DNA of 64,000 bases from an uncultured Bacillota bacterium (GCA_937973635.1 CALJJZ010000035.1:10812-74811); one strand, 5' to 3'; counted from the stretch's first letter, positions 10,752-62,398 are shown. Translations and numbers: made by a program. Notes: generated from the letters alone by a model not told the origin.

Positions 10752-10940
10752 AGGAAAAACTCCCTTTCTTTATTTTCTGTATTTCAGCAAGGGCTGAGAT
10801 TTCTTTTAAATTTTTAAATTCTATAAATCTAGGCTTATCTCCTCTGTCCCTTCTCCTCCTTTTCCTTTTCCCGACGGTGTTTTCTTTTCTTTGTCTTTAT
10901 GATAAGATTTGGAAGGACTTTCTCCACCAAGGGGGTAAAG

Positions 10941-39391: not shown

Positions 39392-40390
39392 TCAGGGGCA
39401 GGAAGCAGAGTCGGGCGTAAAAACACAAACCCGGTTGCGGCCGTCTTGCTTGGCCTGGTAGAGAGCCCTGTCCGCACAAGCCAACAGTTTTTTTGCGGAG
39501 ATAGAACCATGGGGGACGACAGTAGTTACACCAAGGCTGATGGTAACCACAGGGCAGGCGCAGGAACAGCCGTGGGCGATCTGCAGCCCTTCGATGAGCT
39601 CCCGCATCTCTTCGGCAAGGAGAGCGGCCCCCTCTAAAGGGGTTTCCGGTAGGACAACAACAAATTCCTCGCCGCCGTAACGGGCAAGGAGGTCGCCAGG
39701 CCTTTTTAAACCCTTCTGCAGGGCCCGGGCTATCTGCTTCAGGCAGTCATCGCCGGCTAGATGCCCGTAATTGTCATTATACGCCTTAAAACTATCGATG
39801 TCGATCATGATGAGGGAAATGGGGGTCTTGTTCCGGCGCGCCCTTTTCCACTCTATCTCCATAAATTCTTCGAAACGCCTGCGGTTGGCGATACCTGTTA
39901 AGCCGTCGAGAGAGCTCTGCGCCTGTAGCTTCGCATTTGCCTCCTCCAGGAGGCGGGTCACGCCCAGGAGCTCTTCTTCGCGGGCCTTGCGCCGGTCCAT
40001 CTCCCTCTTCAAGGTCAAGGCGGAACGGATCCTGGCCAAGAGCACGACCTTGCTCAAGGGTTTGGTGATATAGTCTATTGCCCCGGCGTTAAAAGCTGCT
40101 TCCAGGAACTCTTCTTCCGACTTGGCCGTAATGATGATCAGGGGGATCCCTTTGAGGTGTGCCGTGGACTTGATCTGCCTGCAGGCTTCAATACCGTCCA
40201 TCCCCGGCATGACTACGTCCATGAGGATTAAGTCAACCTCCGACTTTGCGGTAGGGTCATGGAGCTGTAAGCACGCAAAGGCCTCCTCGGCGTTCGCAGC
40301 GCAGAGCACTTCTTGGTAGCCGGCCTTCTCCAATGTATCTTTGATATAAGTGCAAACAAAGGGAGAATCATCTACAACAAGGACTTTCAT
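39392..40390 (-). CDS. Response regulator with GGDEF diguanylate cyclase output (PleD/WspR-like)
   Basis: The REC domain has the phosphoacceptor in LILMDVVMPGMDG. The GGDEF domain has an RxxD I-site (KRPGD) and the catalytic motif GGEEF. Confidence 0.85.
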   Translation of the reverse strand: MKVLVVDDSPFVCTYIKDTLEKAGYQEVLCAANAEEAFACLQLHDPTAKSEVDLILMDVVMPGMDGIEACRQIKSTAHLKGIPLIIITAKSEEEFLEAAFNAGAIDYITKPLSKVVLLARIRSALTLKREMDRRKAREEELLGVTRLLEEANAKLQAQSSLDGLTGIANRRRFEEFMEIEWKRARRNKTPISLIMIDIDSFKAYNDNYGHLAGDDCLKQIARALQKGLKRPGDLLARYGGEEFVVVLPETPLEGAALLAEEMRELIEGLQIAHGCSCACPVVTISLGVTTVVPHGSISAKKLLACADRALYQAKQDGRNRVCVFTPDSASCP

Positions 40391-41861: not shown

Positions 41862-43709
41862 TTGCCCCTTATAGCCGGGACTTTTTCAGGTTATACTAAG
41901 CCTATGCACATGGGAGCAAAAATAATCGACAGAGAAAAAGAAGTAGTGGAATTCAGGGTCTTTGCCTACAAGCAAAAAAAAGTGGAGCTGCTCCTCAAAG
42001 GGGAGGACCAGAGGCAATGGAGCGTACCCATGGAAAAGGAAGGGCCTCACCTTTACCGTGCCGTCATCGCCGGACAGGGGCTTTCGCCCCTTTATAAATT
42101 CCGCCTCGGAGAAGAAGGGGACTTCCCCGACCCGTATGCCGTTTACCTGCCCGAGGGGGTCCACGGTTTCTGCCAGGTTATAGACGACGGCGCCTACTGC
42201 TGGCAGGCGGAGAACTGGAAAGGCCTCGCCCTGGAAAAGTTGATTTTCTATGAGGTGCACACGGGCACTTTTTCAAAGGAGGGGACTTTCCAAGGCATAG
42301 CGGCCAGGCTGGATTACTTGCTAGAATTGGGCGTCAACGCCCTGGAGCTTATGCCCGTAAACCAGACCCCGGGGAGATGGAACTGGGGTTACGACGGGGT
42401 GGCCCTTTTCAGCGTCAACCACAATTACGGTACGCCGGACGACCTGAAATCCCTGGTGGACACATGCCACCAGCGGGGCCTGGCGATCTTTCTGGACGTC
42501 GTCTACAACCATTTTGGTCCGGAGGGCAATTACCTTTACGCTTTCGGGCCCTACTTTACAGAAAAGTATAAGACGCCCTGGGGGCCTGCCTTAAATTTTG
42601 ACGACCGGCACTGTATGTACATGCGGCGCATGATCCTAGACAATGTCCGCTACTGGCTGGAAAGCTACCGTTTTGACGGTCTGCGCCTGGATGCGGTGCA
42701 TACCATCCGGGACGAGAGCCCCACGCATATCCTCGCGGAAATAAGCCGGACAGCCAGGGAGATAGCCCAAAGGAGCGGCCGCCGGATCGCCGTGGTCGCG
42801 GAAACGGATAGAAACGACGTCCAGCTGATCAATCCCCCGCAAAAGGGAGGTTACGGCATCGACGCCCAGTGGATGGACGACCTGCACCACTGCATCCATA
42901 CGGCGCTGACAGGGGAAAAAGACGGCTATTACCTCGATTATGGCCGGCTAGCTGACCTGGAAAAAGTTTATAAAAATTACCTCTTTACCGGCGAATATTC
43001 CCCTTTCTGGGGCAAAGCAAGGGGTACAGATGCCTCCGCCAACCCCGGTCACCAGTTCATCGTAGCCATCCAAAACCATGACCAGGTAGGCAACCGGGCC
43101 GGGGGCGAAAGGCTGACCCACCTGGTAGATTTCCCCCTGCGTAAAGCCGCCGCTGGGCTGCTTTTCTTCTCCCCTTATCTTCCTCTCCTTTTTATGGGAG
43201 AAGAGTACGGCGAAAGGCGACCGTTCCTCTTTTTTACCGATTACGGCGACGAGAAGCTGAAAGCCGCCGTCTCCCGCGGCCGCAGGGAAGAATTCCAGGC
43301 TTTTGCCTGGGATAATTTCCCCGACCCCGGGGACGAAGAGACCTTCTACCGCTCCAGGCTGACACCGCAGGAACAATGGGATGAGGGAAATAAATGCCAT
43401 TTTGCTTTTTATCAGGATCTAATCCGCCTAAGGAAAACACATCCAGCCCTACTGCTGCCGGATAAAGAAAAAACTGCCGTCAAGGTGCAGGGGGAAAAGG
43501 CCATAGTGGAGATCACGCGCTGGAACGGCAAAACAAAGCTTGTTGCCCTGTTTAACCTGGGAAAGGAGACACTGGAAATGGGCGCCTATCGGGGCAAGCA
43601 GATCTTTAACTCCGAATGGCGCAGGTACGGCGGCATAGTTGAAGGCGAGACAAGAGAGCTCTACCAGGGGAATATGCTTGTCCTGGAAAACACGGACGAC
43701 CAAAGCTGA
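41862..43709 (+). CDS. treZ: Malto-oligosyltrehalose trehalohydrolase-like GH13 enzyme
   Basis: N-terminal E-set region (EFRVFAY) and GH13 catalytic regions (GFDGLRLDAVH, the EY segment of GEEYGE, NHDQ). The start may be the internal MHMGAKI. Confidence 0.7.
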   Translation: MPLIAGTFSGYTKPMHMGAKIIDREKEVVEFRVFAYKQKKVELLLKGEDQRQWSVPMEKEGPHLYRAVIAGQGLSPLYKFRLGEEGDFPDPYAVYLPEGVHGFCQVIDDGAYCWQAENWKGLALEKLIFYEVHTGTFSKEGTFQGIAARLDYLLELGVNALELMPVNQTPGRWNWGYDGVALFSVNHNYGTPDDLKSLVDTCHQRGLAIFLDVVYNHFGPEGNYLYAFGPYFTEKYKTPWGPALNFDDRHCMYMRRMILDNVRYWLESYRFDGLRLDAVHTIRDESPTHILAEISRTAREIAQRSGRRIAVVAETDRNDVQLINPPQKGGYGIDAQWMDDLHHCIHTALTGEKDGYYLDYGRLADLEKVYKNYLFTGEYSPFWGKARGTDASANPGHQFIVAIQNHDQVGNRAGGERLTHLVDFPLRKAAAGLLFFSPYLPLLFMGEEYGERRPFLFFTDYGDEKLKAAVSRGRREEFQAFAWDNFPDPGDEETFYRSRLTPQEQWDEGNKCHFAFYQDLIRLRKTHPALLLPDKEKTAVKVQGEKAIVEITRWNGKTKLVALFNLGKETLEMGAYRGKQIFNSEWRRYGGIVEGETRELYQGNMLVLENTDDQS

Positions 43710-43733: not shown

Positions 43734-47142
<3,409 letters not shown>

Positions 47143-47153
<11 letters not shown>

Positions 47154-48354
47154 CGTTGAGCTCTCCGCCTTTCTGCTGGCCCTCTTCCGCCACAAACATA
47201 TTGATCAGGGTCACATCGTCGCTGAAGCTGTCCGCACCGGCAAAGTCCCGCAGCATCTGCACTAAAGACGGGACTAGCTGCGATGCCTTTGTCCTGTCCA
47301 TCCCCTTTAACAAAGCGCGCAGGCGCCCTTCGCCGAACTGTTCCCCGTCTTTATTTTTCTGCTCTGTTAAGCCGTCCGTATATAAAAAGAGCCCCTCCTC
47401 TGCTGACAGCTGCACCGCCTGCTCCCTAAAGTCTTTCCCTTCTCCCAGAGACATGATTGGGCTGCCATAACAAACCAGCTCCCGCAGCCCCCCTGCCCCG
47501 CCGTACAGAAAAACGGGCTGGGCAAACCCGGCAGCGGAGTACGTCAGGGTCCTTTCCTTGCTATGGTAAAAGGCCAGGAAGATGGTAATAAATATCTCGG
47601 GCGGAAAGTCCTCCTCCCGGAAAGCTTCTTCCAGTGCCAACAGGCAGCGGCGGGGGCTAAAGGGGCCTACTCCCTCTCCGAAGGAGAGCTTGCGGAAATA
47701 GCCGGCAAGGGTCTCCCGGATAAAGACCGTGAGCATGGCGGCATCGAGCTGGTGGCCGGAGACATCGGCCAGGTAAAGGCAGACTACGTCTCCTCCCAGG
47801 CTGAAAATATTAAAATAATCCCCGCCCAGCAGCTCTGCCGGCTGGTAAAAAGTATTAAATCTTAGGTTGGCGGGGGAGGGGTACTCCCGGGGTAGGAGGG
47901 CCCGTTGAATGCGCTGGGCCGTTTTAATATTGGCAAGAAGGTTTTCATTCAGCTCCTTTAGCTGCTGGTAGTAACGGCGCAGGCGCAAGAGGGACCTTAC
48001 CCGCGCCTTCAGCTCCATAGGATCCACCGGCTTGCTTAAAAAATCGTCGGCGCCCATCTCTAGACACTTTAATTTGGCCGCCCGGTCGTGCAGGGCTGTA
48101 ACCATAATCACGGGGATGAACATAGTCTCCTCCCTGCTTTTAAGCCGGCGGCAGACTTCAAAACCGTCAAGGCCGGGCATGACAATATCAAGAAGGACCA
48201 GATCCGGTTTTACCTCCTCCACTCTCACAAGGGCTTCCTCACCTGAGGCAGCCTGCGAAATCTGCGTATAGCCAGCCTCTTCTAAGTAGCGCTGCAGCAA
48301 CCTGCGGTTAAGTTGTTTATCGTCCACAATGAGTATTTTGGGCGGAGCTCCCAC
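47143..48354 (-). CDS. Response regulator with PP2C/SpoIIE phosphatase output (RsbY/RsbU-like)
   Basis: REC domain with phosphoacceptor in LVLLDIVMPGLDG, then a PP2C region (GGDYFNIF...LADVSGHQLDAAML). Confidence 0.8.
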
Positions 48355-48407: not shown

Positions 48408-48719
48408 TCAGATAATTTTAATCACCTTATCCAGCTGGATGATCCTGAACATCCTGCTGACATTCTCGTTAGTCACGTTGCTCACACGCAGCTCGCCGTG
48501 CCGTTCCTTGAGCAGTTTATGGAACAGCAAAAGTTTGCCCAGCCCGGAGCTGTCGATGGCGTTTACATGGGTAAAATCTATGGTAATGGTGTTATATCCT
48601 TCATCATAAAGCTCCAGCAGCTTCTCTTTTAGCCCCTGAGAGTTGGAGATATCTATGCTCCCCTCCGGAATTACTACAACCGCCTTGTCGTCCGTCTTTA
48701 CTGTTTTCATTTCAAGCAA
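48408..48719 (-). CDS. STAS-domain anti-sigma-antagonist-like protein (phosphorylatable Ser present: IDSSGLG)
   Basis: 103 aa with a SpoIIAA-like fold and a DSSG motif. Confidence 0.75.
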   Translation of the reverse strand: MLEMKTVKTDDKAVVVIPEGSIDISNSQGLKEKLLELYDEGYNTITIDFTHVNAIDSSGLGKLLLFHKLLKERHGELRVSNVTNENVSRMFRIIQLDKVIKII

Positions 48720-48732
48720 AGCCCCCTTTAGA

Positions 48733-50604
48733 TTAAAATAAGGTCAGATCTCCCTCTGCCGAGCCCTCGTCCAGCTCATGGGCCTGCAGGTACTCCTTTG
48801 CCTGCAGGCGCTCCAGGTAGCTTGTAAAAAGTTTATACAGTTCCAGCAGTTCTGCGTTTTTCTCCTGCCATTCCTGCAGCCCCCAGCGCTGCAGCTCCAC
48901 CTCCTGCTGCTCCCTAGTCACCTGGACAATCTCCCCAAAGAGCACTTTGAGTCTCCCCACGGCCTGATGCAGGTGCACTGTATGCTGCAAAGCGTCGTTG
49001 ACTTCCTGCAGTTTCTGGAACAACGCCGTAATCTCGGCAGAGAGGGCGAGGACAGCCTGGCCGGCGATCTTGTTTGCCGCGCCAAAACGCTCCAGGTTGA
49101 CGTTTACCTCTGTGAGGGCATGGTCGATATGTCCCTGGTTGCGGAAGACAAGCTGAGCAAAGCGGTCCAGGTCCCTCTGCAGGCGGCCTTTAAGTTTAAA
49201 AAACGAGTTCCTATTCACCGTGACCGTCTCGTCCACCGCCTCAATTACCCCATCGATCTTGCTGCCGATGGCTGCATCGTGCCGGTTAATCCGCGCCAAC
49301 TCAATGCGGGACAGCAGCTTGATCTTTTTCAACAGGGAAACCCGCTCCTGGACAGCTTCAAGGCTTTGCTGCACCTGCAAGATATTCTCGTCGTAAAGGC
49401 TGCGGTCCTCCACCAGGCTGTTTACCCTTTTCCTGATCTCCAGCAGGACCTCCTTGAACTCCTCCATAAAGGCATAAACCGAGCTAAAGGTATAATCTAC
49501 GGCGGTCAGGGTCCTGCTGCCATGCCTGATAGAAGGCTCACCGGCCAGATAGGCAGCCAGGAGCTGTGCTTCCTCTCTGACCCCGTCAAGGGCCTGCAGG
49601 AGGTTCTTGGCCGTCAGGCCGATCTGGTTCAAGGAAGCCACCAGCTGCTCAGACATCCCCTCCACAAGTTTCTGTGTCATCCCCGCCACGCCGTTGACAA
49701 AAACGATATGGTCAAGGCGTCTTTCCTTTGTCTCTGGGGCAACGGGTAAAAAAAGGTACGTCTTGTATTTTAATTCCAAAGCCTGCAGGCACCTGATGCT
49801 GTTCTCCATGTTCTGCCTGATAATATCCTGGCGCTGGATCAACCCCATCAGCTCCTGGAAAGGCGAGAGCACCAACTGCACATTGGCGATGATATTTTTT
49901 AAGATTTTGCTCATCTCCCCGATGGAGGCAATAAGGTTGGCAAAGATCTCTTCTAACCTGTTAATATAACCCTTTACCGCTGTCTCCTGGTTGCCGATAA
50001 TGCCCTGTACATCTTCCTGGAATTCGCTGTACCAGCGGTTCAAAGCTATAAGGAAAGCGTCGATGCGCTGGAATTCCTTTTCCAGGAAAATAGATGTCTG
50101 CAGGATATGGTCCGAGACGACAGCAAAGGCCCTCCCTTCCTCGCCGAGCCGGGAAGAGAAGATAATGGCGTTTAAAGAGATGTCGTTAACGTCGGAAAGG
50201 GTCCTTTTAATCACACCTACCAGGTCAATAAAGGTGCGGAAAGAGTTCTCCCGGTTCTCTCCGCCCAAAAACAAGCCCAGCAAACGGTTCACGTCTTCCT
50301 GCCCTACTAAAAGGGTGCTGATCTCCCTAAAATTATCCCGCACCTTTTGCAGCGCTTGAGCAAAAAGGAGAAACTCGCCAGCTTTAGCGGCCTGGGCCGT
50401 CTGCTCTGATTGGATAAAGTAGTTAATCAGGATATTGGTCTCCTGCTGTGTAAGCTCCAAGTTCCGCTCGATCACCGGCAGGCTTTCGTGTACAATGCCG
50501 TAATAATGCTCTGTCTCCCCGATCAGTTCCTGCAACTTCATGACAGTGTCTTCAATTACTTTCAGCAGGTGCTGTTCTACCCTGCCCACGGCTTGCTCCG
50601 CCAT
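48733..50604 (-). CDS. Soluble, divergent MCP-signalling-domain protein (MCP highly conserved hairpin-tip-like motif near the N-terminus, about 450-aa C-terminal region of unknown function)
   Basis: Residues 139-166 (LSLNAIIFSSRLGEEGRAFAVVSDHI) match the MCP tip [26 protein letters not shown] at about 15 of 26 positions, the same order as the bona fide MCP in this window. There are no TM segments and the remainder is coiled-coil-rich. Confidence 0.55.
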   Translation of the reverse strand: MAEQAVGRVEQHLLKVIEDTVMKLQELIGETEHYYGIVHESLPVIERNLELTQQETNILINYFIQSEQTAQAAKAGEFLLFAQALQKVRDNFREISTLLVGQEDVNRLLGLFLGGENRENSFRTFIDLVGVIKRTLSDVNDISLNAIIFSSRLGEEGRAFAVVSDHILQTSIFLEKEFQRIDAFLIALNRWYSEFQEDVQGIIGNQETAVKGYINRLEEIFANLIASIGEMSKILKNIIANVQLVLSPFQELMGLIQRQDIIRQNMENSIRCLQALELKYKTYLFLPVAPETKERRLDHIVFVNGVAGMTQKLVEGMSEQLVASLNQIGLTAKNLLQALDGVREEAQLLAAYLAGEPSIRHGSRTLTAVDYTFSSVYAFMEEFKEVLLEIRKRVNSLVEDRSLYDENILQVQQSLEAVQERVSLLKKIKLLSRIELARINRHDAAIGSKIDGVIEAVDETVTVNRNSFFKLKGRLQRDLDRFAQLVFRNQGHIDHALTEVNVNLERFGAANKIAGQAVLALSAEITALFQKLQEVNDALQHTVHLHQAVGRLKVLFGEIVQVTREQQEVELQRWGLQEWQEKNAELLELYKLFTSYLERLQAKEYLQAHELDEGSAEGDLTLF

Positions 50605-50640
50605 AACACCCCTCCTTCTTTTCCCAGCGACAAGGAAAAG

Positions 50641-51729
50641 CTAGCCGCGCACATAACTTACGATGGCCCCGCCGATATCATCCAGGGGCAAGATCTTATC
50701 CACAGCCCCCGCCGCGATGGCCTGCTTAGGCATGCCAAAAACAACAGAGCTCTGCTCGTCCTGGGCGATGGTCAGGGCGCCTGCGTCATGCATGGCTTTT
50801 AATCCCCGGGCGCCGTCGTCCCCCATACCCGTAAGGATAATGCCCAGGCTATTGCCGGAAGCATTTTGGGCTACAGAGAAAAAGGTCTTATCCACAGAGG
50901 GGCGGTGCCGGTTTACAGGCGGGCCGTTATCCAGGCGCACGATAAAACCGCTTGCTCCCTTGGACAGGAGCATATGTTTGCCTCCTGGCGCGACCAGAAC
51001 GCTGCCGTTGACGAGAGGGTCGCCGTCTTGAGCCTCCTTGACCCGCAGGCGGCAGAAATTGTTCAGGCTGGCCGCGTAGGAGGCGGTAAAACCGGCAGGC
51101 ATATGCAGCACCACAAGGATGCCCGGCAGGTTGGCCGGCAGCTTAGAGAGTATATTTTTCACCGCCACGGTGCCGCCGGTGGAAGCGCCGATGGCGATGA
51201 CCTTATCTGTGCTCTGCACCAGCCCCCTTCCCGGCTCGCGGGCCGCCAGGTCAGGGATAAGCTCTGCCGGTGCCATCAAGCGGTCGATGCGTTCCTGCCT
51301 GACCTGGCGGCGCAGGACCTCCATGTTTGCCGCAGCAGCATTTCTAATCTTGCCGATTATCTCTGGCGCCAGCTCTTCCAGGGCGCTCCCCAGACCCAGA
51401 GTAGGTTTAGAAATGTAATCCACGGCACCGAGTTCCAAGGCACGGAGTGTAGCTTCGCTCCCCTCCCGGGCCAGGGAGCTGATAACCACCACGGGCAGGG
51501 GATAGGAGGCCATCAACTTTTCCAGAAAAGTAAGGCCGTCCATCCGGGGCATCTCCAGGTCGAGGGTAATCACGTCAGGGCGCTCCTCTTTGATCTTTTT
51601 GATGGCGTACAGGGGATCGTTTGCCGTGCCCAGCACCTCCATACCCCGTTCCCTGGAGATAATGCGGGCTAGCAGTTCCCGTACCAGCGCTGAGTCGTCC
51701 ACAATGAGTACTTTAATCGGCTTAGGCAT
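50641..51729 (-). CDS. cheB: Chemotaxis response regulator protein-glutamate methylesterase
   Basis: REC domain (LIVDDS...DVITLDLEMPRMDG) and the methylesterase catalytic Ser region GASTGG. Confidence 0.9.
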   Translation of the reverse strand: MPKPIKVLIVDDSALVRELLARIISRERGMEVLGTANDPLYAIKKIKEERPDVITLDLEMPRMDGLTFLEKLMASYPLPVVVISSLAREGSEATLRALELGAVDYISKPTLGLGSALEELAPEIIGKIRNAAAANMEVLRRQVRQERIDRLMAPAELIPDLAAREPGRGLVQSTDKVIAIGASTGGTVAVKNILSKLPANLPGILVVLHMPAGFTASYAASLNNFCRLRVKEAQDGDPLVNGSVLVAPGGKHMLLSKGASGFIVRLDNGPPVNRHRPSVDKTFFSVAQNASGNSLGIILTGMGDDGARGLKAMHDAGALTIAQDEQSSVVFGMPKQAIAAGAVDKILPLDDIGGAIVSYVRG

Positions 51730-52334
51730 TACCTGTGGCCCCTCCCATTGTTAAAAATCGTCAGCTCGCTTTCTTTCTGCTGCTGCTGGCGCATCCAGTA
51801 AAAGAAACGCTTTTCCCGGGAAATGGCATCTTCCAGCGTCTGGTTATACTGGATGCGTTTCAGGTAAACTGTAAACTCTTCGGGGAAAAAAAAGATCTTG
51901 CGCCCGTATTTGCCGCCTAAGTTCTCCGCAAGCACCGGGATCTCTTCCATCTGCAGGTAGGTAAGGGCAAAATCAATATTGGACTGAGAGACATTGAGCA
52001 GGGTCGTATCCATGACCTTCCCTCCGCCAAAGACTTTGGCTTCTAGGGTGTCGCGGCGGGCGCCGAGCTTCATCATGCTGTTAATCATCTTTTCCATGGC
52101 ATTGATGCCATAACGGGCGTCCTGGCTGAAAAGGATCTCTTCGGCACGCAGGCTCCCCGGCAGCATAAAATGGTTCATGCCCACAATGCCCGTAGTCCTG
52201 TCCCGCAGACAGACAGAGACACAGGAACCGAGGAGCGTGGTCAGAATGATATTTTTCTCCCGCGTAGCGTAATAGTCCCCCGCGAACAGCTCGTACGTGT
52301 ATTTGTTAAAAGTCCGGTTGAAATACTTTTTCAA
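51729..52334 (-). CDS. cheD: Chemoreceptor glutamine deamidase
   Basis: CheD family, 201 aa (LGSCVSVCL...GMNHFMLPG). Confidence 0.85.
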   Translation of the reverse strand: MKKYFNRTFNKYTYELFAGDYYATREKNIILTTLLGSCVSVCLRDRTTGIVGMNHFMLPGSLRAEEILFSQDARYGINAMEKMINSMMKLGARRDTLEAKVFGGGKVMDTTLLNVSQSNIDFALTYLQMEEIPVLAENLGGKYGRKIFFFPEEFTVYLKRIQYNQTLEDAISREKRFFYWMRQQQQKESELTIFNNGRGHR

Positions 52335-52358: not shown

Positions 52359-53225
52359 TCAGCCGAGCTTTTGATAGATGGTATGTTTAAGCAGCCGCCA
52401 CCTCCCGGCATTGCCGGAAACAGTATTAATGGATTCGGAATGGCCCAGGAAGAGGAGCCCGCCCTCCATAAGGTGCCGGTGGTAACGCTTTAACACCCTT
52501 TGCTGCGTCTCTTTGTCAAAATAGATAAAGACATTGCGGCAAAAAATAAAATTAAGGGCCTCCCCCACGGGATATTCGCCGGCACTGGTAAGGTTAATGC
52601 GACGGAAAGTGATCAGCTCCCGCAGCATGTCTTTGACCTTGAAAAAACCCGCATTTGGTCCCGTGCCCAACTTAAAATAGGTTTTCAAGTTCTCATAGGG
52701 AATACCTTCCACTTCGTCCTTGCTGTAGATGCCCTCGCGGGCCTTTTGCAGCGTTTCTGTATTAATATCGGAAGCCAGGATCTGGATCTTCCAGTTTTTG
52801 TGCCCTTTGAAATAGCGGTGCAGCACCATGGCGATGGTATAAGGCTCTTCGCCCGTAGAGCAGCCGGCGGACCAGCAGCGCAGGCGGCGGGGCACAAGGC
52901 CCGCCGCCGCCAGCTCTTCCAGCCGGGGCAAGTACTCTTCCACCAGGTAGGCATAGTGGTGGTTCTCCCGGAAAAACTTGGTCACGTTGGTGGTAATAAG
53001 ATTAAACATGGTATCAAGCTCGCCAGGATTTTCCCGGACATATCCAAGGTACGCGCTCACGTCTTTGAGCTGTAGCTCCCGCAGCCTGCGGGAAAGGCGG
53101 GAAATCGTCAACGCCCTTTTGCTTTCCGTTAGGTTCACCCCGATGGAGTTGTAGATCATCTCGCGGATGGCGAGGAATTCTTTATCCGTTAAGGTGTACT
53201 GTTTGCCCGGCAGCGTCGCCATCAT
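52359..53225 (-). CDS. cheR: Chemotaxis protein methyltransferase
   Basis: CheR N-terminal helical domain and SAM-MTase motif WSAGCSTGEEPY. Confidence 0.9.
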   Translation of the reverse strand: MMATLPGKQYTLTDKEFLAIREMIYNSIGVNLTESKRALTISRLSRRLRELQLKDVSAYLGYVRENPGELDTMFNLITTNVTKFFRENHHYAYLVEEYLPRLEELAAAGLVPRRLRCWSAGCSTGEEPYTIAMVLHRYFKGHKNWKIQILASDINTETLQKAREGIYSKDEVEGIPYENLKTYFKLGTGPNAGFFKVKDMLRELITFRRINLTSAGEYPVGEALNFIFCRNVFIYFDKETQQRVLKRYHRHLMEGGLLFLGHSESINTVSGNAGRWRLLKHTIYQKLG

Positions 53226-55339
53226 GACCCTGCCACCTTCGCCGTCTCGCTGCCGCTGTAATCAGCCTTGCGCACCAGGCGGAAGAGGGAGGAGACGTCC
53301 AGAATGATGGCCACTTTCCCGTCGCCCATGATCGTGACTCCGGCCACGCCGTCGACCTGCTCCATGTTTTCCTTAATGCTTTTAATTACTACCTGTTCCT
53401 GGCCGATAATCTCGTCTACAAGCAGCGCCATCTTTTTCTGGCCATCCTTGATGATCACTAGGATCCCCTCCGTGGGACGAGTATGCTCTGCTTCCAGGTG
53501 CAGCAGCTGGTAAAGGGCGGAGTAGGGGATATACTCGTTGCGCAACTGCATAATCAACCCTTTGCCCTCTGCCTGCCGGATGTCTCCCTGGCGGGCTTTA
53601 ATAAATTCCATAATAGAGGTGAGAGGGATGATAAAACGTTCCGTGCCCACCCGTACCATCATGCCGTCGATAATAGCCAAGGTCAGGGGCAGCTTGATGC
53701 TGAATTTTGTCCCCTTGCCCCGTTCAGAAAAGAGCTCCACGCTGCCGCGCAGGTTCTTAATATTGTTGGCCACCACATCCAGCCCTACCCCGCGACCGGA
53801 GATGTCAGAAACCTCTTTGGCCGTGGAAAAACCGGGCATAAAGAGCAGGCGCTGCAGCTCCGCCTGGCTGGGCAGACGGTCCTTTTCCACCAGCCCCCTT
53901 TCCCTGGCCTTCGCCAGGACGGCTTCTTCGTTGATCCCCCTACCGTCGTCGCTGATCTCAATGACAATATTCCCTTCCTGGTGAAAAGCATTGAGATGGA
54001 TCGTGCCCTGAGGTTTCTTGCCGGCAGCTAGGCGCTCCTCCGCCGTCTCCAGGCCGTGATCCACGGCATTGCGGATGAGATGCTTCAGGGGGTCCGTGAT
54101 CTGCTCAATGACCTTTTTATCTAGCTCCGTCTCCTTGCCGCTCATCACCAGCTCGATTTCTTTGCCTTTTTCCCGTGCCAGATCCCTGACCATGCGCTGG
54201 AAGCGCATAAAGGTGCCGCCAATGGGGATCATGCTGGTGGTCATGACCTCCTCTTGGAGGAAACGGATAATTTTGTCCACTTCCTGGAAAGCATTCAACA
54301 CCTCCGCCACCGCTGCCCGTTCTCCCAGCATTTTGGAAACAAGCTCTTTCACGCGGGACTGGGCAATGAGCAGCTCGGCGATATAATTCAGGATCTCTTC
54401 CAACTTACCTGTATCTACGCGAATGGTGTTGGCCTGCTCCTGCTCGCGGAAGCGCTGCTGCGTCTGCATGACCTTGCTCACCTGCCCGCTGGCAAGCTTG
54501 CCCTCAAGCACCAAAAGCTCCCCCACTCGCTTCTGCTTGGCCAGGACCTCTTCTACCTCTTCAGGTGAAATTAGGCCCCGCTCCACGAGCATCTCCCCGG
54601 TCCTTTTCTCTCCGTGAAACCACTGGTCCAGCTCATTGGTGATCTCGTCGATCTTGATCTCGTTGTCGTCGGCAACAAAAATAAAGATATTTTCCAGCTC
54701 TTCTTTACTGCTGCCTGTCTCCAGAAAGATAGTCCAGGAAAGATAGAGCTGCTGCGGATCAAGTTCCTGCAGAGGGGGCAACTTGGCCATATTCACGTAG
54801 TTCTCCAAAAAGACGCCCGTCTCTTCCAGCTCCAGCAAAAGCATCAGGGGATCTGTGCCCGTGGCAAAAAGGTCCGGTTTAAACTTCAGCTCTAGCTTAT
54901 AGTAGCGCTTTCCTGGAGAAGCCTTAGGGGGAGCTTCCTTTTCTGCCGGTGTTTCTCCCCCGGCAGCATATAAATCGGCTTTCCGGATCAGCTCTGCTAC
55001 CTCTTTCTGGTAAGCCGTACCCTCGGGGTCGCCGCTTTCCAAGAGCTGGCGCAAGACATCCAGCCCGGCAAACATAAGAGAGAATACCTCCCTGGGCATA
55101 CCTTCTCCGGACTGGCGGATCTGATCTAAGATGTTTTCCAGGTGGTGAGCCGCCTGGCTAATCTGGGTAAAGCCCATGAGGCCGGCCCCTCCTTTAATTG
55201 TATGCATGGCCCGGAAAACAAGGTCGATCAGCCCCATATCCCCGGGGTTGTCTTCTAGCTCCAGGAGCCCTTCCTCCAGGGACTGGAGGTTTTCCTCCGT
55301 CTCTTCGATAAAAATTTTAAGCATATCTTCACCGGCCAA
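53222..55339 (-). CDS. cheA: Chemotaxis histidine kinase CheA (P1 Hpt, dimerisation, HATPase_c, CheW-like P5)
   Basis: P1 His in AMHTIKGGAG, G-boxes in the HATPase_c domain, and a C-terminal CheW-like domain. Confidence 0.9.
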   Translation of the reverse strand: MAGEDMLKIFIEETEENLQSLEEGLLELEDNPGDMGLIDLVFRAMHTIKGGAGLMGFTQISQAAHHLENILDQIRQSGEGMPREVFSLMFAGLDVLRQLLESGDPEGTAYQKEVAELIRKADLYAAGGETPAEKEAPPKASPGKRYYKLELKFKPDLFATGTDPLMLLLELEETGVFLENYVNMAKLPPLQELDPQQLYLSWTIFLETGSSKEELENIFIFVADDNEIKIDEITNELDQWFHGEKRTGEMLVERGLISPEEVEEVLAKQKRVGELLVLEGKLASGQVSKVMQTQQRFREQEQANTIRVDTGKLEEILNYIAELLIAQSRVKELVSKMLGERAAVAEVLNAFQEVDKIIRFLQEEVMTTSMIPIGGTFMRFQRMVRDLAREKGKEIELVMSGKETELDKKVIEQITDPLKHLIRNAVDHGLETAEERLAAGKKPQGTIHLNAFHQEGNIVIEISDDGRGINEEAVLAKARERGLVEKDRLPSQAELQRLLFMPGFSTAKEVSDISGRGVGLDVVANNIKNLRGSVELFSERGKGTKFSIKLPLTLAIIDGMMVRVGTERFIIPLTSIMEFIKARQGDIRQAEGKGLIMQLRNEYIPYSALYQLLHLEAEHTRPTEGILVIIKDGQKKMALLVDEIIGQEQVVIKSIKENMEQVDGVAGVTIMGDGKVAIILDVSSLFRLVRKADYSGSETAKVAGS

Positions 55340-55353
55340 AACAGCCTCACCAC

Positions 55354-55734
55354 CTATTTAACGAATTTTTTCACTACAGCAATGAGCTGCTCCGGTTTAA
55401 ATGGCTTAACCAGCCAACCGGCAGCTCCGGCATTTTTCCCTTCCATCTTTTTTTGTTCCTGTGATTCTGTAGTAAGTACAAGGATGGGAATAAATTTTAA
55501 AGCGGTATTTTTTTTAACCTCTTTAATAAAAGTAATCCCGTCCATACGCGGCATATTAATATCCGTAATGATCATGGCCGGCTTTTTGCCCTTATTGCCC
55601 AGCTCCTGGAGACGCTCCAGCCCGTCCTGACCGTCCACCGCCGCAACTACCTCATAGCCCCCCTTGGACAGGGTATACTCCAGAGAAGCCCTGACCGTCT
55701 TTGAGTCATCCAGAACAAAAATAAACTTGTTCAT
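55354..55734 (-). CDS. cheY: CheY-like single-domain response regulator
   Basis: 126 aa. It has D (in LDDS), phosphoacceptor in MIITDINMPRMDG, T (LTTES) and K (VKPF). Confidence 0.85.
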   Translation of the reverse strand: MNKFIFVLDDSKTVRASLEYTLSKGGYEVVAAVDGQDGLERLQELGNKGKKPAMIITDINMPRMDGITFIKEVKKNTALKFIPILVLTTESQEQKKMEGKNAGAAGWLVKPFKPEQLIAVVKKFVK

Positions 55735-56024
55735 TGTCCCTTGAATACTCCCTTCTCCACAATATCAACGGCCCCTGAAAGTTCCAGTAACTGTTCCAGC
55801 ATCTTTCCCCTGTTCATCAGGCTAAAAGAGAGGCCTTCCCGCTGGCAGGCTTTAAACGTAGCCAGGAGTAGCTGTATACCGGCTGCATCGACATCCTGCA
55901 GGACAGCAGCATCCAGCACAAACTCCTTTTTCCCCTCTTTCATCCTTTTTCCCAGGTGCGCCAGGATCTCCTCCCGCACCTCCCGGACATTGTGGATATT
56001 CAAAAATTCAGGGAGTTTCAACAT
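55731..56024 (-). CDS. STAS-domain protein with Ala in place of the phosphorylatable Ser (DVDAAG instead of DSSG)
   Basis: 97 aa with a SpoIIAA-like fold. Its start overlaps cheY (ATGA). Confidence 0.65.
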   Translation of the reverse strand: MLKLPEFLNIHNVREVREEILAHLGKRMKEGKKEFVLDAAVLQDVDAAGIQLLLATFKACQREGLSFSLMNRGKMLEQLLELSGAVDIVEKGVFKGQ

Positions 56025-57222
56025 CGGTCATCATCCCCTTGTCATTTTCCCAAAACGGTTCTGCCGCGTCCATCCGCACTATTCCCCCCAGGGCATTTTC
56101 CCGCAGCTCATTATGGCGGGCCATACCCCGGGCATGGTCGCAGTACATAATACCCGCCTCCCCGTTTTCGCAGCAGCGGTTGCCAGCCAAAAGCGGGGCC
56201 GCATAATCCCGGACAATAATGCCAGACCAGTTATTTTTTAAGCATTCGTTCCTTTTTGCCATGCCAGTAGCATGATCGAAAAAGGTAATGCCTCCTTCTT
56301 CATTTCCCTGGCAGATATTGTGGAGCAGCACGGGGGCAGCCTGCTCCAGGACGGCAATGCCAGACCACTTATTGCGGAGGCAGCGGCAATAAAAAGCGCC
56401 GCCGCCGCTTAAGCCCATAAAAGCTATGCCCGTTTCGCCGTTGGAGCTGCACTCGTTTTCCTGCAGGAAGGGGGCGGCTTGCTCCAGCACCGTAATGCCG
56501 TCGGAGCTGTTGTTAAGGCACCTGTTCCCCCGGGCCAAGCCCCCGCTCTGATGGAAATAGACAATGCCAGATTCGCCGTTTTCATAACAGTGGTTGGCTT
56601 CAAGGAGCGGGTGGGCCTTCTCCAGCACGGCGATACCCGCCCGGCCATTACTGGTGCAGGTGTTCTCCAGCACCACCGCGCAGGAACCGCCCAGGAGGAC
56701 GATGCCCGCATGGCCGTTGTCTCGGCAGGTATTCTGCTCAAGGGAGGCCCTGGACTGCCCCGTTACAGCGATGCCGGACCTGTCATTGCCATAACTGAGA
56801 GAGGCGGCAATGCTGCCCTGCGCTCCACTACCTAGCCAAAGGCCGTCTCCGCCTGAAGCCGCGCCTTCCGCATAAACACCACCGCTGAAAGCACAGCCCT
56901 CGATCACCACCGTGCCCTCCTTGACCTGTAAAACATTTGCCCCTGCCTTACCCCCATATTGAAAGGCAATACCGCTAAACTGCCAGCTTCCCCTGCCCTC
57001 CAGCAGCACAACGGCGGGGCCGCCCTCGCCAATAATCTTCGTCTGCTCTCGCCCTTTCCCTTTAAGGGCCAGAGGCTTGGTGAGGACAAGGGGTTCCGCC
57101 AGGCGGTATTCACCTGCGGCAAGGAGCAGAATATCCCCCTCCCCGGCAACAGCAAGGGCCCCGCGCAGGTTTTCCGCTCCCGGGGCAACTTGTAAAATAC
57201 GGCCTTCTTTCCCTTTGTCCAT
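56008..57222 (-). CDS. Cytoplasmic right-handed parallel beta-helix (PbH1) repeat protein
   Basis: 404 aa with no signal peptide. About eleven exact-period 23-aa repeats of consensus N-x-C-x-x-N-G-x-x-G-I... run from residue 141 to 393. Confidence 0.6.
   Translation of the reverse strand: MDKGKEGRILQVAPGAENLRGALAVAGEGDILLLAAGEYRLAEPLVLTKPLALKGKGREQTKIIGEGGPAVVLLEGRGSWQFSGIAFQYGGKAGANVLQVKEGTVVIEGCAFSGGVYAEGAASGGDGLWLGSGAQGSIAASLSYGNDRSGIAVTGQSRASLEQNTCRDNGHAGIVLLGGSCAVVLENTCTSNGRAGIAVLEKAHPLLEANHCYENGESGIVYFHQSGGLARGNRCLNNSSDGITVLEQAAPFLQENECSSNGETGIAFMGLSGGGAFYCRCLRNKWSGIAVLEQAAPVLLHNICQGNEEGGITFFDHATGMAKRNECLKNNWSGIIVRDYAAPLLAGNRCCENGEAGIMYCDHARGMARHNELRENALGGIVRMDAAEPFWENDKGMMTDVETP
56044..56802 (-). 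repeat. Coding tandem repeat, 69-bp period (the PbH1 repeats of the beta-helix protein)
   Basis: Derived from the 23-aa protein periodicity seen in the translation. Confidence 0.55.
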
Positions 57223-57246: not shown

Positions 57247-57606
57247 CTAGAGCTTCTCCTGCCAGCCGGGGCGCTGGAAAAACCTTTTTAGCTCCTCAAC
57301 CTGGCGGGTCAGTGCATCTAAAAGCTCCTTTGCTTCCTCCAAACGCCCTTCTTTTCCAGCAGCCTCCAGTTCAAGGGCAAGTTTGTACGCTGTCTGCGCG
57401 CCGATATTGCCTAGCTCACCTTTAAGGCCATGGGCAGGGGCAACAATCCCCTGGGCATCCTGCCGGCTGAGCGCTTCCTGGACAACATTAAGGTCATGGC
57501 AGCAGTCTTCAAAAAAGAGGGCTACAATCTCCGCCAGAAGATCTTTGCTGCCACCCATCTGCTTGAGCATGTTTTCCAAATCGGGGTGCATCTTCTCGTG
57601 GTGCAT
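57247..57606 (-). CDS. Stand-alone Hpt (histidine phosphotransfer) domain protein
   Basis: 119 aa. Hpt signature around HGLKGELGNIGA, as in the ArcB/Ypd1/HptB family. Confidence 0.7.
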   Translation of the reverse strand: MHHEKMHPDLENMLKQMGGSKDLLAEIVALFFEDCCHDLNVVQEALSRQDAQGIVAPAHGLKGELGNIGAQTAYKLALELEAAGKEGRLEEAKELLDALTRQVEELKRFFQRPGWQEKL

Positions 57607-57689: not shown

Positions 57690-58157
57690 TTATTTGTTCC
57701 CTGCCTCACCTGAGCTCCCTTGCTGCAGTTTTGTAGCCTGCATACAGCCTTCCATCTCCATATTGACGGGCCTGTCCACCTGCCTGCTCTGTGCTAGAAG
57801 GCCAGGGCCGCCTAGCCCCATGAAGTTGAACTCTTGGCACTTGAGCTTGAGAGGATTTTCTTCAATGCAGATCACGTGCTGCAGGCTGAGGCGGTCAAAG
57901 AGCTGCCTGACAAAGGGGTGGCCCACATTGACCAGTTTCAGTTCGCCTCCTTGCTCTTTCAGCCGCTTCTGAGTAACAAGCAAGCAGCTCAACCCGGCGC
58001 TGTCGATGCGCTGCAGAACGTCGCAGTCCAAAGCTAGAACGCTGCAGCCTTCTTCTAAGAGCCGGCCCAATACTTGCTTCAGCTCCCCTGCGTTGGTCAT
58101 ATCCACAAAAGAGGGGAGCCTAACCAGGGCGCAGCTCTTCTCCTTCTCCACTCTCAT
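57690..58157 (-). CDS. STAS-domain protein with a C-terminal extension (Ser retained: IDSAGLS)
   Basis: 155 aa: a STAS core of about 110 aa plus a tail of about 45 aa. Confidence 0.65.
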   Translation of the reverse strand: MRVEKEKSCALVRLPSFVDMTNAGELKQVLGRLLEEGCSVLALDCDVLQRIDSAGLSCLLVTQKRLKEQGGELKLVNVGHPFVRQLFDRLSLQHVICIEENPLKLKCQEFNFMGLGGPGLLAQSRQVDRPVNMEMEGCMQATKLQQGSSGEAGNK

Positions 58158-58291: not shown

Positions 58292-60004
58292 CTAGAATTT
58301 TTCAAAATCGTCTTCGTCGAAAGCCCCAGGGCCGGGCAGCATGGGAAAAACTTGCTTGTTTTTGCCTTTGGTCTCCATCCTGGCGGAGAAGGCTTTCCCG
58401 CCTTGGGCAGGGGGCACCGCCCTTTGGCCCAGGCCGCGCTGCTCCCCCGTATCCCGGAGGGTAAAGAGCCCCACCATCTCGGAGAGCTCCGTCGCTTCTC
58501 TATCCATGTTTTCGCTGGAGCTGGCGATCTCCTCTACTAAGGAAGCGTTCTGCTGGGTAACCTGGTTGAGCTCTTCGATAGCCGTACGGATATCTGCAGC
58601 AGCGGCAGACTGCTCGCGCAAAGAGGCGGATATCTCTCCCACTACGTCGCTGGTTTTTCGCGTGTTCTGGACAATGATCTCCAGTACCTTTTCCGTCTCC
58701 CCCATCAGCTCGTTGCCCTTATCTACACGGGCAATGCTGTCCTTAATTAACTTTTCGATCTCTTTGGCCGACGCCGCAGAACGCCCGGCCAAGTTCCGCA
58801 CCTCCGCCGCCACCACGGCAAAGCCCCGGCCCTGCTCTCCAGCCCGGGCCGCCTCTACAGCAGCGTTTAAGGCTAAAAGGTTGGTCTGGAAAGCAATGTC
58901 ATTCACCGCAGCAATAATCTCTGAAATCTCCCGGCTGCCCCGCGTGATCTCTTGCATTGCCCCTTGCATCTGCCTGACCACCTCTACCCCCTGAGAGACG
59001 CTTTGCAGCGTCTTTTTGGAGATGGTGTCCGCTTCTGTGGCGTTGGCGGCCGCCGTCTCTAGGGAAGAAGTGATCTCTTCCACGGTGGAGGAGATCTCCT
59101 CTAAGGAAGAAGCCTGCTCTTCCGTCCTCTGGGAGAGGTCCTGGTTCCCCGAGGATATCTCCGAAGAGGCCAGAGAGATGAGGTTGGCCCCGTTGCGTAC
59201 GCTTAAAATAATATCGTTCAGTTTCCCCACAAACGCGTTGAAGCTAGAGGCCAAGTCTCCCACTTCGTCCCGGGACCGGACCACTATCCTCCTGGTCAGG
59301 TCGCCTCCTTGCTTCGCCATCTCCTGCAAGGAAGTGACAACTGCCTTAATGGGGACAGTTATACCCCGGTTCAAGAGCATGGCCATGACTACGCCCAGCA
59401 CCAAAGCTAGCAAAGAGGCAAGGACGATGACCCTGCGGGAGAGCTCGTTCTGGGCTTCGGCCATGGCCACTTGTTTCTCTTTCTCCTGGCCCAGGACATC
59501 TTGTAGCTCTTTGAGTAAAACCCTGACTTCTGTAATATAAAGTTGGGTGCGGTCCCGGTAGACCTGCAGGGCCTGCTCCCGGGCCAGAGGCGAGCCCATC
59601 CCCTGGGCTGCAAAAATTTCGACGATCTCTGCCGCCGAGGCATGCAAAAGGGCATGGGGCTCTTCCAGCCTGAGGAAGGCATCTTGAAACTCCCTGGAAG
59701 CCGCTTTAAAGCCCTCCCCCCTGAGGGTGGCATAATACCACCGCCCGAAATCGCACTGGGTGTGGTCGAGCTGGCCCGTAAATTGCCTTTGTAAAACAAA
59801 GGTATTAGCCAGGTTGTTTAGCCAGTCCAGATGGTCCACTTCTTTTTGTACTGTGAAAATAATTTCCTCCATCTTCTGCATGGCCACAGCATTGGCCCTT
59901 TCTACCCTGGCGTTGGTCAGGTAGGCAATGCCACCCATAGCCAGCATTAGCGCCAGGACCACACCAAAGCCACCAAGCAATTTGAGTTTTAACGAAAAGC
60001 GCAT
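58292..60004 (-). CDS. Methyl-accepting chemotaxis protein (two TM segments, periplasmic helical sensor, HAMP, MA domain)
   Basis: TM1 at residues 8-30 and TM2 near residue 195. The tip motif is LALNAAVEAARAGEQGRGFAVVAAEVRNLAGRS. It has an acidic C-terminal tail ending DEDDFEKF. Confidence 0.9.
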   Translation of the reverse strand: MRFSLKLKLLGGFGVVLALMLAMGGIAYLTNARVERANAVAMQKMEEIIFTVQKEVDHLDWLNNLANTFVLQRQFTGQLDHTQCDFGRWYYATLRGEGFKAASREFQDAFLRLEEPHALLHASAAEIVEIFAAQGMGSPLAREQALQVYRDRTQLYITEVRVLLKELQDVLGQEKEKQVAMAEAQNELSRRVIVLASLLALVLGVVMAMLLNRGITVPIKAVVTSLQEMAKQGGDLTRRIVVRSRDEVGDLASSFNAFVGKLNDIILSVRNGANLISLASSEISSGNQDLSQRTEEQASSLEEISSTVEEITSSLETAAANATEADTISKKTLQSVSQGVEVVRQMQGAMQEITRGSREISEIIAAVNDIAFQTNLLALNAAVEAARAGEQGRGFAVVAAEVRNLAGRSAASAKEIEKLIKDSIARVDKGNELMGETEKVLEIIVQNTRKTSDVVGEISASLREQSAAAADIRTAIEELNQVTQQNASLVEEIASSSENMDREATELSEMVGLFTLRDTGEQRGLGQRAVPPAQGGKAFSARMETKGKNKQVFPMLPGPGAFDEDDFEKF

Positions 60005-62371: not shown

Positions 62372-62398
62372 ATTTTCACCTCTCGCTCAGTCAAGTTC

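Follow-up and report, generated by a model that had tools for sequence, protein, structure and literature searches.

Gene X is a single open reading frame on the minus strand of a 64-kb window, by which we mean the whole 64,000-nucleotide stretch of DNA from an uncultured Bacillota bacterium (GCA_937973635.1, CALJJZ010000035.1:10812-74811) analyzed here. On balance, we read its 623-amino-acid product, also called X, as a soluble chemoreceptor without a sensor domain, built of two tandem signaling hairpins, a short helix and a tail with a docking-type peptide. Its gene stands in the slot of the McpA-like receptors of F7 chemosensory systems, and the protein would fold as a single-chain bundle and act in chemosensory arrays together with a STAS protein. 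X would then be a new, soluble, double-hairpin structural variant within a receptor lineage that is known but whose function is obscure; if nothing else holds, it is still an unusual yet interpretable divergent methyl-accepting chemotaxis protein (MCP).

Two signaling hairpins in one chain

The first hairpin of X (about residues 14-285) is a genuine MCP signaling hairpin with a largely canonical tip. Against the Pfam MCPsignal profile (PF00015) the outcome is divided: X scores 26.5 bits (E 6.4e-6), short of the gathering cut-off of 34.6 bits, and ten diverse members of its family give 24-33 bits or no hit, all under the cut-off, but homology to receptor signaling domains is statistically supported. 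In a search with a profile made from 10 family sequences, residues 88-248 match the receptor structure 2ch7 of Thermotoga maritima at E 4.8e-13, and HHalign comparison of the N-terminal half of X with 13 co-located MCPs gives 98.6% and E 1.4e-15. The flanking MCP helices, which an earlier note on this DNA had called barely recognizable, are thus found by profiles. The cytoplasmic domains of T. maritima TM14 and TM1143 (2ch7 and 3g67), soluble helical hairpins like those of X, are the best solved relatives of hairpin 1; unlike X, they are obligate homodimers of single-hairpin chains, with canonical tips, methylation sites and scores above the Pfam threshold.

The tip motif, placed at residues 139-166 in the earlier note, is real but comprises residues 142-167, the first letter and the offset having been slightly wrong. 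Aligned without gaps, it agrees in 12 of 26 positions with the tip of a canonical MCP encoded in the window, and it retains Asn, Arg/Lys, Gly, Gly and Phe, while Glu is lost. In 90 diverged relatives the strongest family-wide constraints of hairpin 1 are these tip residues, with N145 invariant, G157 and F160 each present in at least 90%, and R/K152 and G154 conserved; the length of the tip is constant in 135 of 142 members. The descending arm includes a variable loop (residues 64-79) and a conserved LPxIE...E55 stretch. On the ascending arm lies a family signature (residues 247-268, consensus SPFQELMxLIQxQDIIRQxxEN) in which Q257, Q259, D260 and Q264 are invariant or nearly so. This signature is the counterpart of LQFTDIIVQQ in the McpA-like proteins of Vibrio and, by positional comparison, also matches the canonical ..TQQNA.. 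motif.

Beyond the tip, the earlier note saw some 450 residues of uncharacterized C-terminal region, in reversal of the canonical sensor-then-signaling order. The length is about right (the count is 466), but roughly 130 of these residues are the return arm of hairpin 1 and the next 285 or so a second copy of the hairpin, after which come a short helix and a docking-type peptide. HHalign of residues 1-288 with residues 289-623 gives 96% and E 2.8e-9 over 259 collinear columns, setting tip on tip and loop on loop (the loop of hairpin 2, residues 355-367, being equivalent to loop 64-79 of hairpin 1), and a run with 142 sequences repeats the result. The C-terminal half also aligns with canonical MCPs (81%, E 1.2e-5), with LLSRIELAR on LNAAIEAAR in register. 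From the collinear alignment of the halves and the match of the C-terminal half to canonical MCPs we conclude that X is a tandem duplication of the signaling hairpin, residues ~290-573 representing a second, degenerate copy. Tip 2 has lost the canonical Asn, Gly and Phe and kept I-E-x-A-R, the very element that tip 1 has lost, with E435 present in 136 of 142 members; judged by their residues, the two tips have diverged in complementary ways.

It is highly improbable that X is instead a homodimeric cytoplasmic MCP of the ordinary kind, divergent and extended at its C-terminus by a coiled coil, the second hairpin reflecting nothing but heptad-repeat similarity and the C-terminal half forming a novel helical sensor or oligomerization domain. 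Coiled coils do produce spurious profile matches, and the reversed halves that served as controls still reached E ~1e-5 (3-8e-5 over 90-100 columns). Moreover, the halves aligned from only 10 sequences gave a non-significant E of 0.014, alignments of 90-142 sequences being needed, and a Foldseek search of the Protein Data Bank with the first AlphaFold2 (AF2) model returned only generic long coiled coils (SMC, Rad50) at TM-scores of 0.1-0.3. The true-order alignment from 90-142 sequences nevertheless beats the reversed controls by four orders of magnitude and is 2.6 times longer, with the tips and the loops superposed; shuffling the columns gives E > 0.3. The C-terminal half by itself finds the canonical MCP tip in register, its hidden Markov model (HMM) is collinear with the hairpin of the McpA-like protein of Vibrio sp. 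THAF64 (22 bits), and AF2 folds it as a helix-turn-helix with the arm lengths of hairpin 1.

The divergent soluble MCP-like protein without transmembrane segments proposed in the earlier note, which named no strand, is borne out, and X has no sensor domain. The highest Kyte-Doolittle mean over 19 residues of X is 1.41, and none of 142 family members has an N-terminal transmembrane segment; X as a membrane protein was therefore ruled out for lack of such a segment. Apart from the sub-threshold MCPsignal match, X matches no named Pfam or NCBIfam family, and a C-terminal sensor domain was likewise rejected, there being no Pfam or NCBIfam hit and the region being an all-helical duplicate. The frame begins with ATG, and a protein identical to X is present on metagenome contigs.

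After hairpin 2 the chain ends in helix alpha-7 and an acidic tail. The predicted local distance difference test (pLDDT) of the tail drops to 64 over residues 611-620 and 41 over 621-623, with values below 50 only at 619-623. X itself ends DLTLF, and the family consensus is G-[ED]-[LVI]-[TV]-[LF]-F, with F the last residue in 135 of 142 members and G at position -6 in 127 of 142; a few members end ELELF, TVELF or DVELF, and Glu or Asp stands at tail position 3 in five. Surface conservation in X is highest at tip 1, at the QDIIRQ stretch (across from the conserved E55 region), at tip 2 and in the tail.

Kinship with the McpA-like receptors of F7 systems

In stage 1 of the F7 systems, the genes stand in the order STAS, cheY, cheA, (two cheW genes and a 36H receptor with a pentapeptide), cheR, cheD, cheB, mcpA-like, STAS and a serine phosphatase gene (PMC7184735). 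The McpA-like receptors, such as Pseudomonas aeruginosa PA0180 (McpA/CttP), Vibrio cholerae VCA1088 and Shewanella oneidensis SO_2117 (PMC7184735, PMC9855816), cannot be assigned to a heptad class, lack the CheR-binding pentapeptide and share a conserved C-terminus, [DET][IVL][ED]L[FY], of unknown role (Ortega et al. 2020, PMC7184735). The order in the window fits this ancestral cluster, with X in the mcpA-like slot and only cheW missing, the F7 assignment being based on gene order and receptor type. The stage 1 cluster on chromosome 2 of Vibrio sp. THAF64 (locus L021) shows the same gene order.

The McpA-like protein of THAF64 has 398 amino acids, a transmembrane segment at about residues 29-60 and one hairpin, and ends EEGEVELF. 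The HMM of the N-terminal half of X scores 81.8 bits on it over HMM positions 20-272, laying IQnQDIIRQ on LQFTDIIVQ, against 45-52 bits for Aer2-like and CZB MCPs; on the two Vibrio McpA-like proteins compared it scores 78-82 bits, and on other MCPs 36-52 bits. HHalign with these two proteins gives 98.2% and E 3.3e-14 over 192 columns, whereas canonical MCPs align with the McpA-like proteins over only 85 tip columns. The two Vibrio proteins are 390-398 amino acids long (L021 13647-14843; L022 ~3001-4158), and their arms align with X over ~190-250 residues. The class of VCA1088 is given as 24H in one review (PMC7534058), other papers having it as unassignable or 44H. The arms of the Vibrio proteins seem long for 24H, and the heptad class of the lineage looks unsettled.

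Like the McpA-like receptors, X is encoded after cheB and directly before genes for a STAS protein and a serine phosphatase, together with a 36H-type receptor bearing a true pentapeptide. Its heptad class is not assignable, position 2 of its tail is aliphatic rather than aromatic (E-L-T-L-F in X, E-V-E-L-F in the McpA-like proteins), its ascending arm carries QxxDIIxQ, and the arms align far beyond the tip. Unlike them, it has no transmembrane region and has two hairpins per chain (623 amino acids, as against one hairpin in 398 in Vibrio); its tip 1 has diverged much further, the McpA tip being fully canonical, and position 3 of the tail is usually Thr or Val in X and Glu or Asp in the McpA-like proteins. 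The sources of X are Firmicutes, Halanaerobiales, Spirochaetes and Actinomycetota metagenome-assembled genomes (MAGs), those of the McpA-like receptors Gammaproteobacteria. The shared slot, tail and DII motif and the HMM and HHalign matches therefore point to X as a relative of the McpA-like lineage that is soluble and has been duplicated in tandem, kinship being supported by the sequences and orthology not. The new stand-alone sensor class that the earlier note had considered does not fit, since X fills the known McpA-like slot of ancestral F7 systems and shares the signature features of its occupants.

Arrangement of the two hairpins

The AF2 model made from a 90-sequence alignment (pLDDT 83.5, predicted TM-score 0.71) shows two helix-turn-helix units of equal arm length, each with a loop ~64 residues into its first arm. 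Hairpin 1 has helices at residues 2-63 and 80-152, a turn at 153, a helix at 154-285 and a loop at 286-289. Hairpin 2 has helices at 290-354 and 368-438, a turn at 439-444 and a helix at 445-573, after which come a loop, a helix at 584-606 and the disordered tail. In this model the hairpins probably fold back on each other through the loop at 281-291 to give a four-helix bundle of ~190 Å with both tips at the same end. The predicted bundle would be the natural counterpart, in one chain, of the bundle formed by receptor homodimers, but with two non-equivalent tips.

Covariation was analyzed by inverse-covariance couplings, gap-imputed, from 142 family sequences, an earlier direct-coupling analysis having been discarded as dominated by gap-correlated loop columns. 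In the positive controls, enrichment is strongest in the intra-hairpin bands, i+j 300-317 (p ~1e-4) and 863-880 (p 5e-5 to 8e-4). Between hairpins, the best of 37 bins for the C-arm of hairpin 1 with the N-arm of hairpin 2 is i+j 584-595 (p 1.3e-3), at the place the model predicts; for the N-arm of hairpin 1 with the C-arm of hairpin 2 the best of 36 bins is i+j 567-578 (p 5e-3), and the two N-arms show a parallel peak at offset 278-295 (p 3e-3). The enrichment of the C1 x N2 and the parallel N1 x N2 bins is comparable to that of the intra-hairpin controls.

Several points weigh against the bundle. With wide, pre-set bands the N1 x C2 and C1 x C2 pairs, two of the four predicted interfaces, are not enriched, and the covariation is weak, with sliding-band ranks of 4-18%. 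Covariation is also blind to the difference between contacts within a chain and between chains, including those of an antiparallel dimer, and the AF2 run was of a monomer, such runs tending to collapse amphipathic hairpins together.

Of particular interest for comparison is DosM (V. cholerae VC1403), whose tandem signaling domains form an extended rod that spans two baseplates by electron cryotomography (PMC7534058, PMC9321776). Both of its domains are recognizable as signaling domains, by BLAST with confirmation from SMART, and a triple-CheW protein is encoded in the F9 clusters to which it belongs (PMC9321776, PMC7534058); 98% of DosM homologues have no sensor domain (PMC9321776). X resembles DosM in having two tandem MCP signaling hairpins, in being soluble, in lacking a sensor domain and in its presumed scaffold-type role. 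It differs in that its second tip is degenerate, in that it gives one sub-threshold MCPsignal hit, hairpin 2 being seen by profile-profile comparison only, in the side-by-side four-helix bundle of the model where the domains of DosM lie at opposite ends of a rod, and in its F7-like cluster, a triple-CheW gene being found in none of 13 X loci. Membership of the DosM/F9 family was ruled out by the missing triple-CheW (CheW3) gene and the degenerate second tip.

A double-ended rod of the DosM kind, with the hairpins opposed in one chain or in an antiparallel homodimer, would measure ~40 nm with a tip at each end and could bridge two CheA/CheW layers in a cytoplasmic sandwich array. We consider it rather unlikely for X. 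It has the precedent of DosM itself and of its equally sensor-less homologues, the covariation between hairpins 1 and 2 fits an antiparallel dimer just as well, and AF2 monomer runs are blind to such a dimer. The junction speaks against it: in the family, N268 and F302 as anchors lie anywhere from 21 to 40 residues apart, with every distance in this range represented, and this continuously varying length and the polar composition make the junction a loop rather than a continuous coiled coil, a point that also favors the side-by-side bundle. In addition, tip 2 is without nearly all the hallmarks of CheA/CheW binding, which would leave one functional tip per chain, and none of the 13 loci has a triple-CheW gene or other F9 features, most of them encoding transmembrane partner receptors.

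Single-chain receptor 'dimers', in which Tar cytoplasmic hairpins are fused in tandem, have reportedly been engineered in the Crane laboratory. As the model has it for X, two covalently joined hairpins there make one chain with the four-helix bundle of a homodimer; X is natural and has diverged, complementary tips, whereas the fusions are artificial and have two identical canonical ones. If the single-chain bundle of X is real, it would be a natural tool for finding each protomer's share in trimer formation and CheA/CheW coupling, a long-standing question on arrays, its halves being independently mutable because they are different sequences in one gene.

A possible role in arrays and partner switching

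In the mechanism we propose, tip 1, with its canonical Asn, Arg/Lys, Gly, Gly and Phe, would dock to CheA-P5/CheW. The Glu and Arg kept in tip 2, which we take to be trimer-contact residues in Tsr, would supply the other face of a pseudo-dimer. From the docking of tip 1 and the contacts of tip 2 we infer that X can join arrays, and it would insert into CheA/CheW arrays beside the co-encoded 36H-type pentapeptide receptors. Lacking a ligand-binding domain, X most likely receives its input from a protein. The best candidate is the adjacent phosphorylatable STAS protein, whose state would be set by the PP2C phosphatase (itself controlled through REC, PAS/GAF or MASE3/GAF domains, depending on the genome). 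The tail peptide may tether a partner other than the pentapeptide-dependent CheR. X would in this way couple a partner-switch module to CheA activity, as has been proposed for the Che1/CrsA/CrsR locus of Shewanella. That locus encodes McpA, CrsA (STAS) and CrsR (REC-PP2C-anti-sigma); RpoS is under the partner-switch control of CrsA and CrsR, and McpA is found in complexes with a CheA (PMC9855816).

It is quite unlikely that X works outside the array altogether, as an MCP-derived coiled coil that serves as a target or regulator of the STAS and PP2C proteins, like an anti-sigma factor, or as their scaffold, its position among the che genes being a relic. An isolated X-STAS pair without che genes does occur in Desulfuribacillus (L003) and in L020, and in L010 and L013 the PP2Cs adjoining X have sensors of their own. 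The lack of a methylation consensus in X, the scores of all tested members under the MCPsignal threshold and the window's lack of a cheW gene would fit such a component too. However, the constraints on hairpin 1 peak at the tip residues that mark receptors binding CheA/CheW (N145, G157 and F160, with the length fixed in 135 of 142), most loci keep X within a complete che operon, and the McpA-like relative in Shewanella complexes with a CheA.

The role of X as an array receptor has several observations to contend with. Some canonical residues of tip 1 are gone, the position of Tsr E385 being variable and the EVRxLA stretch absent. The strict methylation consensus [ASTG][ASTG]xx[EQ][EQ]xx[ASTG][ASTG] has no match in X, even with cheR, cheB and cheD in the same operon, and the X family has no column in which Glu and Gln interchange, Q257, Q259 and Q264 being fixed as Gln; the missing consensus and interchange sites argue against a conventional adaptation role for X. 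No cheW gene was found in the 64-kb window by blastp with CheW from a related locus, the only CheW-like domain being CheA P5. The comparison with McpA-like proteins covers only two sequences, both from Vibrio. In Gammaproteobacteria, McpA-like receptors have one hairpin, are anchored in the membrane and enter a different (F6) array (PMC9855816), and for that reason their function may not transfer to X. Finally, we infer the binding of X to CheA/CheW, to the STAS protein and to a partner of the tail from conservation and gene neighborhood.

A bolder proposal, which we regard as speculative and on the whole doubtful, is that X is a natural covalent 'heterodimeric' chemoreceptor in which duplication has replaced homodimerization and the tips have specialized, with a phospho-switchable STAS protein as its 'ligand', and that McpA or X, STAS and PP2C together form an ancient module plugging a stress partner switch into a chemosensory kinase array. 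If so, one tip would serve CheA/CheW and the other receptor-receptor or other contacts, X would hard-wire the asymmetry that canonical homodimers adopt transiently in trimers of dimers, and a module with STAS input would also account for the McpA-like receptors of F7 systems, which have long been a puzzle.

X extends the McpA-like receptor and its fixed STAS/PP2C partnership from Gammaproteobacteria to Gram-positive and spirochaetal lineages, and the presence of the trio beyond Gammaproteobacteria argues that it is an ancient functional unit. As a soluble and more tractable homologue, X could be of use in studying the link of F7 systems to partner-switch (sigma-S-type) stress signaling, and it is relevant to the structural biology of arrays as well as to the role of ancestral F7 systems.

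Size and spread of the family

The X family is large; its conservation extends along the whole chain, and it escapes the Pfam MCPsignal threshold. An exhaustive profile search yields 429 proteins at E < 1e-10, of which the best 150 are nearly all full-length (570-660 amino acids), and at 50% identity there are at least 140 full-length cluster representatives from several phyla. A word-indexed homologue search gave only 10 relatives, even with a 90-sequence profile, the family being revealed by the exhaustive HMM search, and a locus search with the 10-sequence alignment gave 6 true loci. A tblastn search of plasmids with the C-terminal half of X found no match, and the full-length query matched ordinary MCP tips only.

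Members come from Clostridia, Halanaerobiales, Spirochaetes and other groups, named sources being Desulfitispora, Desulfuribacillus, Natroniella, Iocasia, Limnochordia, Brachyspira, and Spirochaetia and Actinomycetota MAGs. Those sampled are annotated as 'hypothetical protein' or, rarely, as a generic 'methyl-accepting chemotaxis protein'. Family-wide signatures are the tip 1 motif, residues 247-268, RIELAR of tip 2, FTxYxER of helix alpha-7 and the C-terminal peptide. With every tested member under the MCPsignal threshold, censuses that define MCPs by that domain miss the family.

Genomic neighborhood

By Pfam, the operon of the window reads STAS-cheY-cheA-cheR-cheD-cheB-X-STAS-REC-PP2C on the minus strand, followed by a PAS-rich hybrid histidine kinase gene (Table 1). 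The neighbors given in the earlier note agree with this, cheB lying upstream of X, and STAS and REC-PP2C (SpoIIE) downstream; 36 nucleotides (nt) separate cheB from the start of X, and the next gene, for the STAS protein we call STASb, begins 13 nt past the X stop codon. A canonical CZB-HAMP-MCP gene stands 2.3 kb upstream of the operon; its product has the tip Glu at residue 390 and an arm length that is 36H-like by arithmetic.

Table 1. Features of gene X and its surroundings (positions in the window unless a locus number is given)
Feature	Position	Strand	Basis
Gene X, soluble tandem-hairpin MCP-like protein	48733..50604	minus	open reading frame and translation
Shine-Dalgarno sequence AAGGAGG	50611..50617	minus	read from sequence; 6 nt ahead of the ATG of gene X
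Hairpin 1, descending arm, residues 14-152	50149..50565	minus	AF2 helices 2-63 and 80-152; conservation
Tip 1, ISLNAIIFSSRLGEEGRAFAVVSDHI, residues 142-167	50104..50181	minus	motif match and family conservation
Hairpin 1, ascending arm, residues 154-285	49750..50145	minus	AF2 helix 154-285; alignment with the C-arms of 2ch7 and co-located MCPs
Family signature SPFQELMGLIQRQDIIRQNMEN, residues 247-268	49801..49866	minus	conservation
Predicted junction loop between hairpins, residues ~281-291	49732..49764	minus	AF2 break 286-289; polar, proline-containing
Hairpin 2, descending arm (predicted), residues 290-438	49291..49737	minus	AF2; half-against-half HHalign
Tip 2, KIKLLSRIELARINRHDAAIGSKI, residues 427-450	49255..49326	minus	HHalign of C-terminal half with canonical MCPs (RIELAR on AIEAAR); conservation
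Hairpin 2, ascending arm (predicted), residues 445-573	48886..49272	minus	AF2 helices 445-540 and 543-573
Helix alpha-7, residues 584-606, FTxYxERxxA	48787..48855	minus	AF2; T594 near-invariant
Disordered acidic tail ending ...DEGSAEGDLTLF-COOH	48736..48786	minus	low pLDDT; family conservation
STASb, single-domain, phosphorylatable DSSGLG motif	48408..48719	minus	Pfam STAS, E 8e-17; motif alignment
REC-PP2C (SpoIIE-type) serine phosphatase response regulator	47143..48354	minus	Pfam Response_reg and SpoIIE
cheB	50641-51729	minus	Pfam
cheD	51729-52334	minus	Pfam
cheR	52359-53225	minus	Pfam
cheA with P5/CheW-like domain	53222-55339	minus	Pfam
cheY	55354-55734	minus	Pfam
STASa, DAAG, non-phosphorylatable	55731-56024	minus	Pfam; motif alignment
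Canonical CZB-HAMP-MCPsignal receptor, 570 amino acids, C-terminal DFEKF (pentapeptide MCP)	58292..60004	minus	Pfam; sequence
Pentapeptide MCPs of other X loci	L004 5295-6950, 6962-9043; L006 7628-9373; L010 63-1613; L013 11839-13878; L016 17142-19097; L018 6677-8803		

Across 13 non-redundant loci, X is found within or next to a STAS-cheY-cheA-(cheW)-cheR-(cheD)-cheB-(MCP)-(cheW)-(STAS) cluster, at its 3' or 5' end. A STAS gene adjoins X in 11 of the 13 and is found in the same cluster in the remaining two. Related loci hold cheW and a receptor gene inside the operon, cheW standing directly before X or before STASb. The input domains of the PP2C proteins vary: the window has REC, L013 has PAS-GAF, and in L010 MASE3-GAF is joined by an added HATPase_c_2 kinase domain. 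All canonical MCPs of the X clusters (CZB-HAMP or dCache-HAMP) end D-F-E-[KVRT]-F after a long low-complexity linker. Since pentapeptide receptors make up only ~1% in Firmicutes (survey, PMC7390727), clusters of the X type seem to account for a subset that is distinct and coherent.

L006 (the same as L008) has two X paralogues, at 204-2054 and 10001-11881, ~30% and 46% identical to X of the window; they sit one at each end of the che operon, and each position occurs singly in other genomes. In a Spirochaetia MAG (L017 12489-13760), the 'CheA' encoded after X-STAS-CheY has only 423 amino acids and only the Hpt domain by Pfam, and may be a truncated or highly divergent kinase.

Within a 10-kb region of the window there is a third STAS paralogue, STASc (57690-58157, minus; 155 amino acids, DSAG, with a C-terminal extension). 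No gene for a STAS kinase of the RsbW/SpoIIAB type was seen in the window; the kinase domain in L010 is fused to the phosphatase. Between the CZB-MCP and STASc genes and the che operon lie genes for a stand-alone Hpt protein of 119 amino acids (57247-57606, minus) and a right-handed beta-helix (NosD-like) protein of 404 amino acids (56008-57222, minus), the latter reading frame overlapping the start of STASa by 17 nt. On the other side, the hybrid histidine kinase (43734-47195, minus; 1153 amino acids, multiple PAS domains and two receiver domains) overlaps the end of REC-PP2C by 53 nt. A comparable gene, PAS-HK-REC-Hpt, comes after X in L006, and a second kinase input to the PP2C receiver is therefore plausible.

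The flanks of the cluster hold cyclic di-GMP and two-component genes (39392-40390, minus; 60085-61098, minus; 36666-37772, plus; 61727-63502, minus), the products being REC-GGDEF, REC-HD-GYP, a stand-alone HD-GYP-type protein, and a NarL-type regulator with a REC-HisKA_3 kinase. A gene of the alpha-amylase family (41862-43709, plus) comes immediately after the hybrid kinase, and a TreT-like glycosyltransferase is encoded nearby on L001, a metagenome contig matching the window; this suggests a compatible-solute or glycogen locus unrelated to X.

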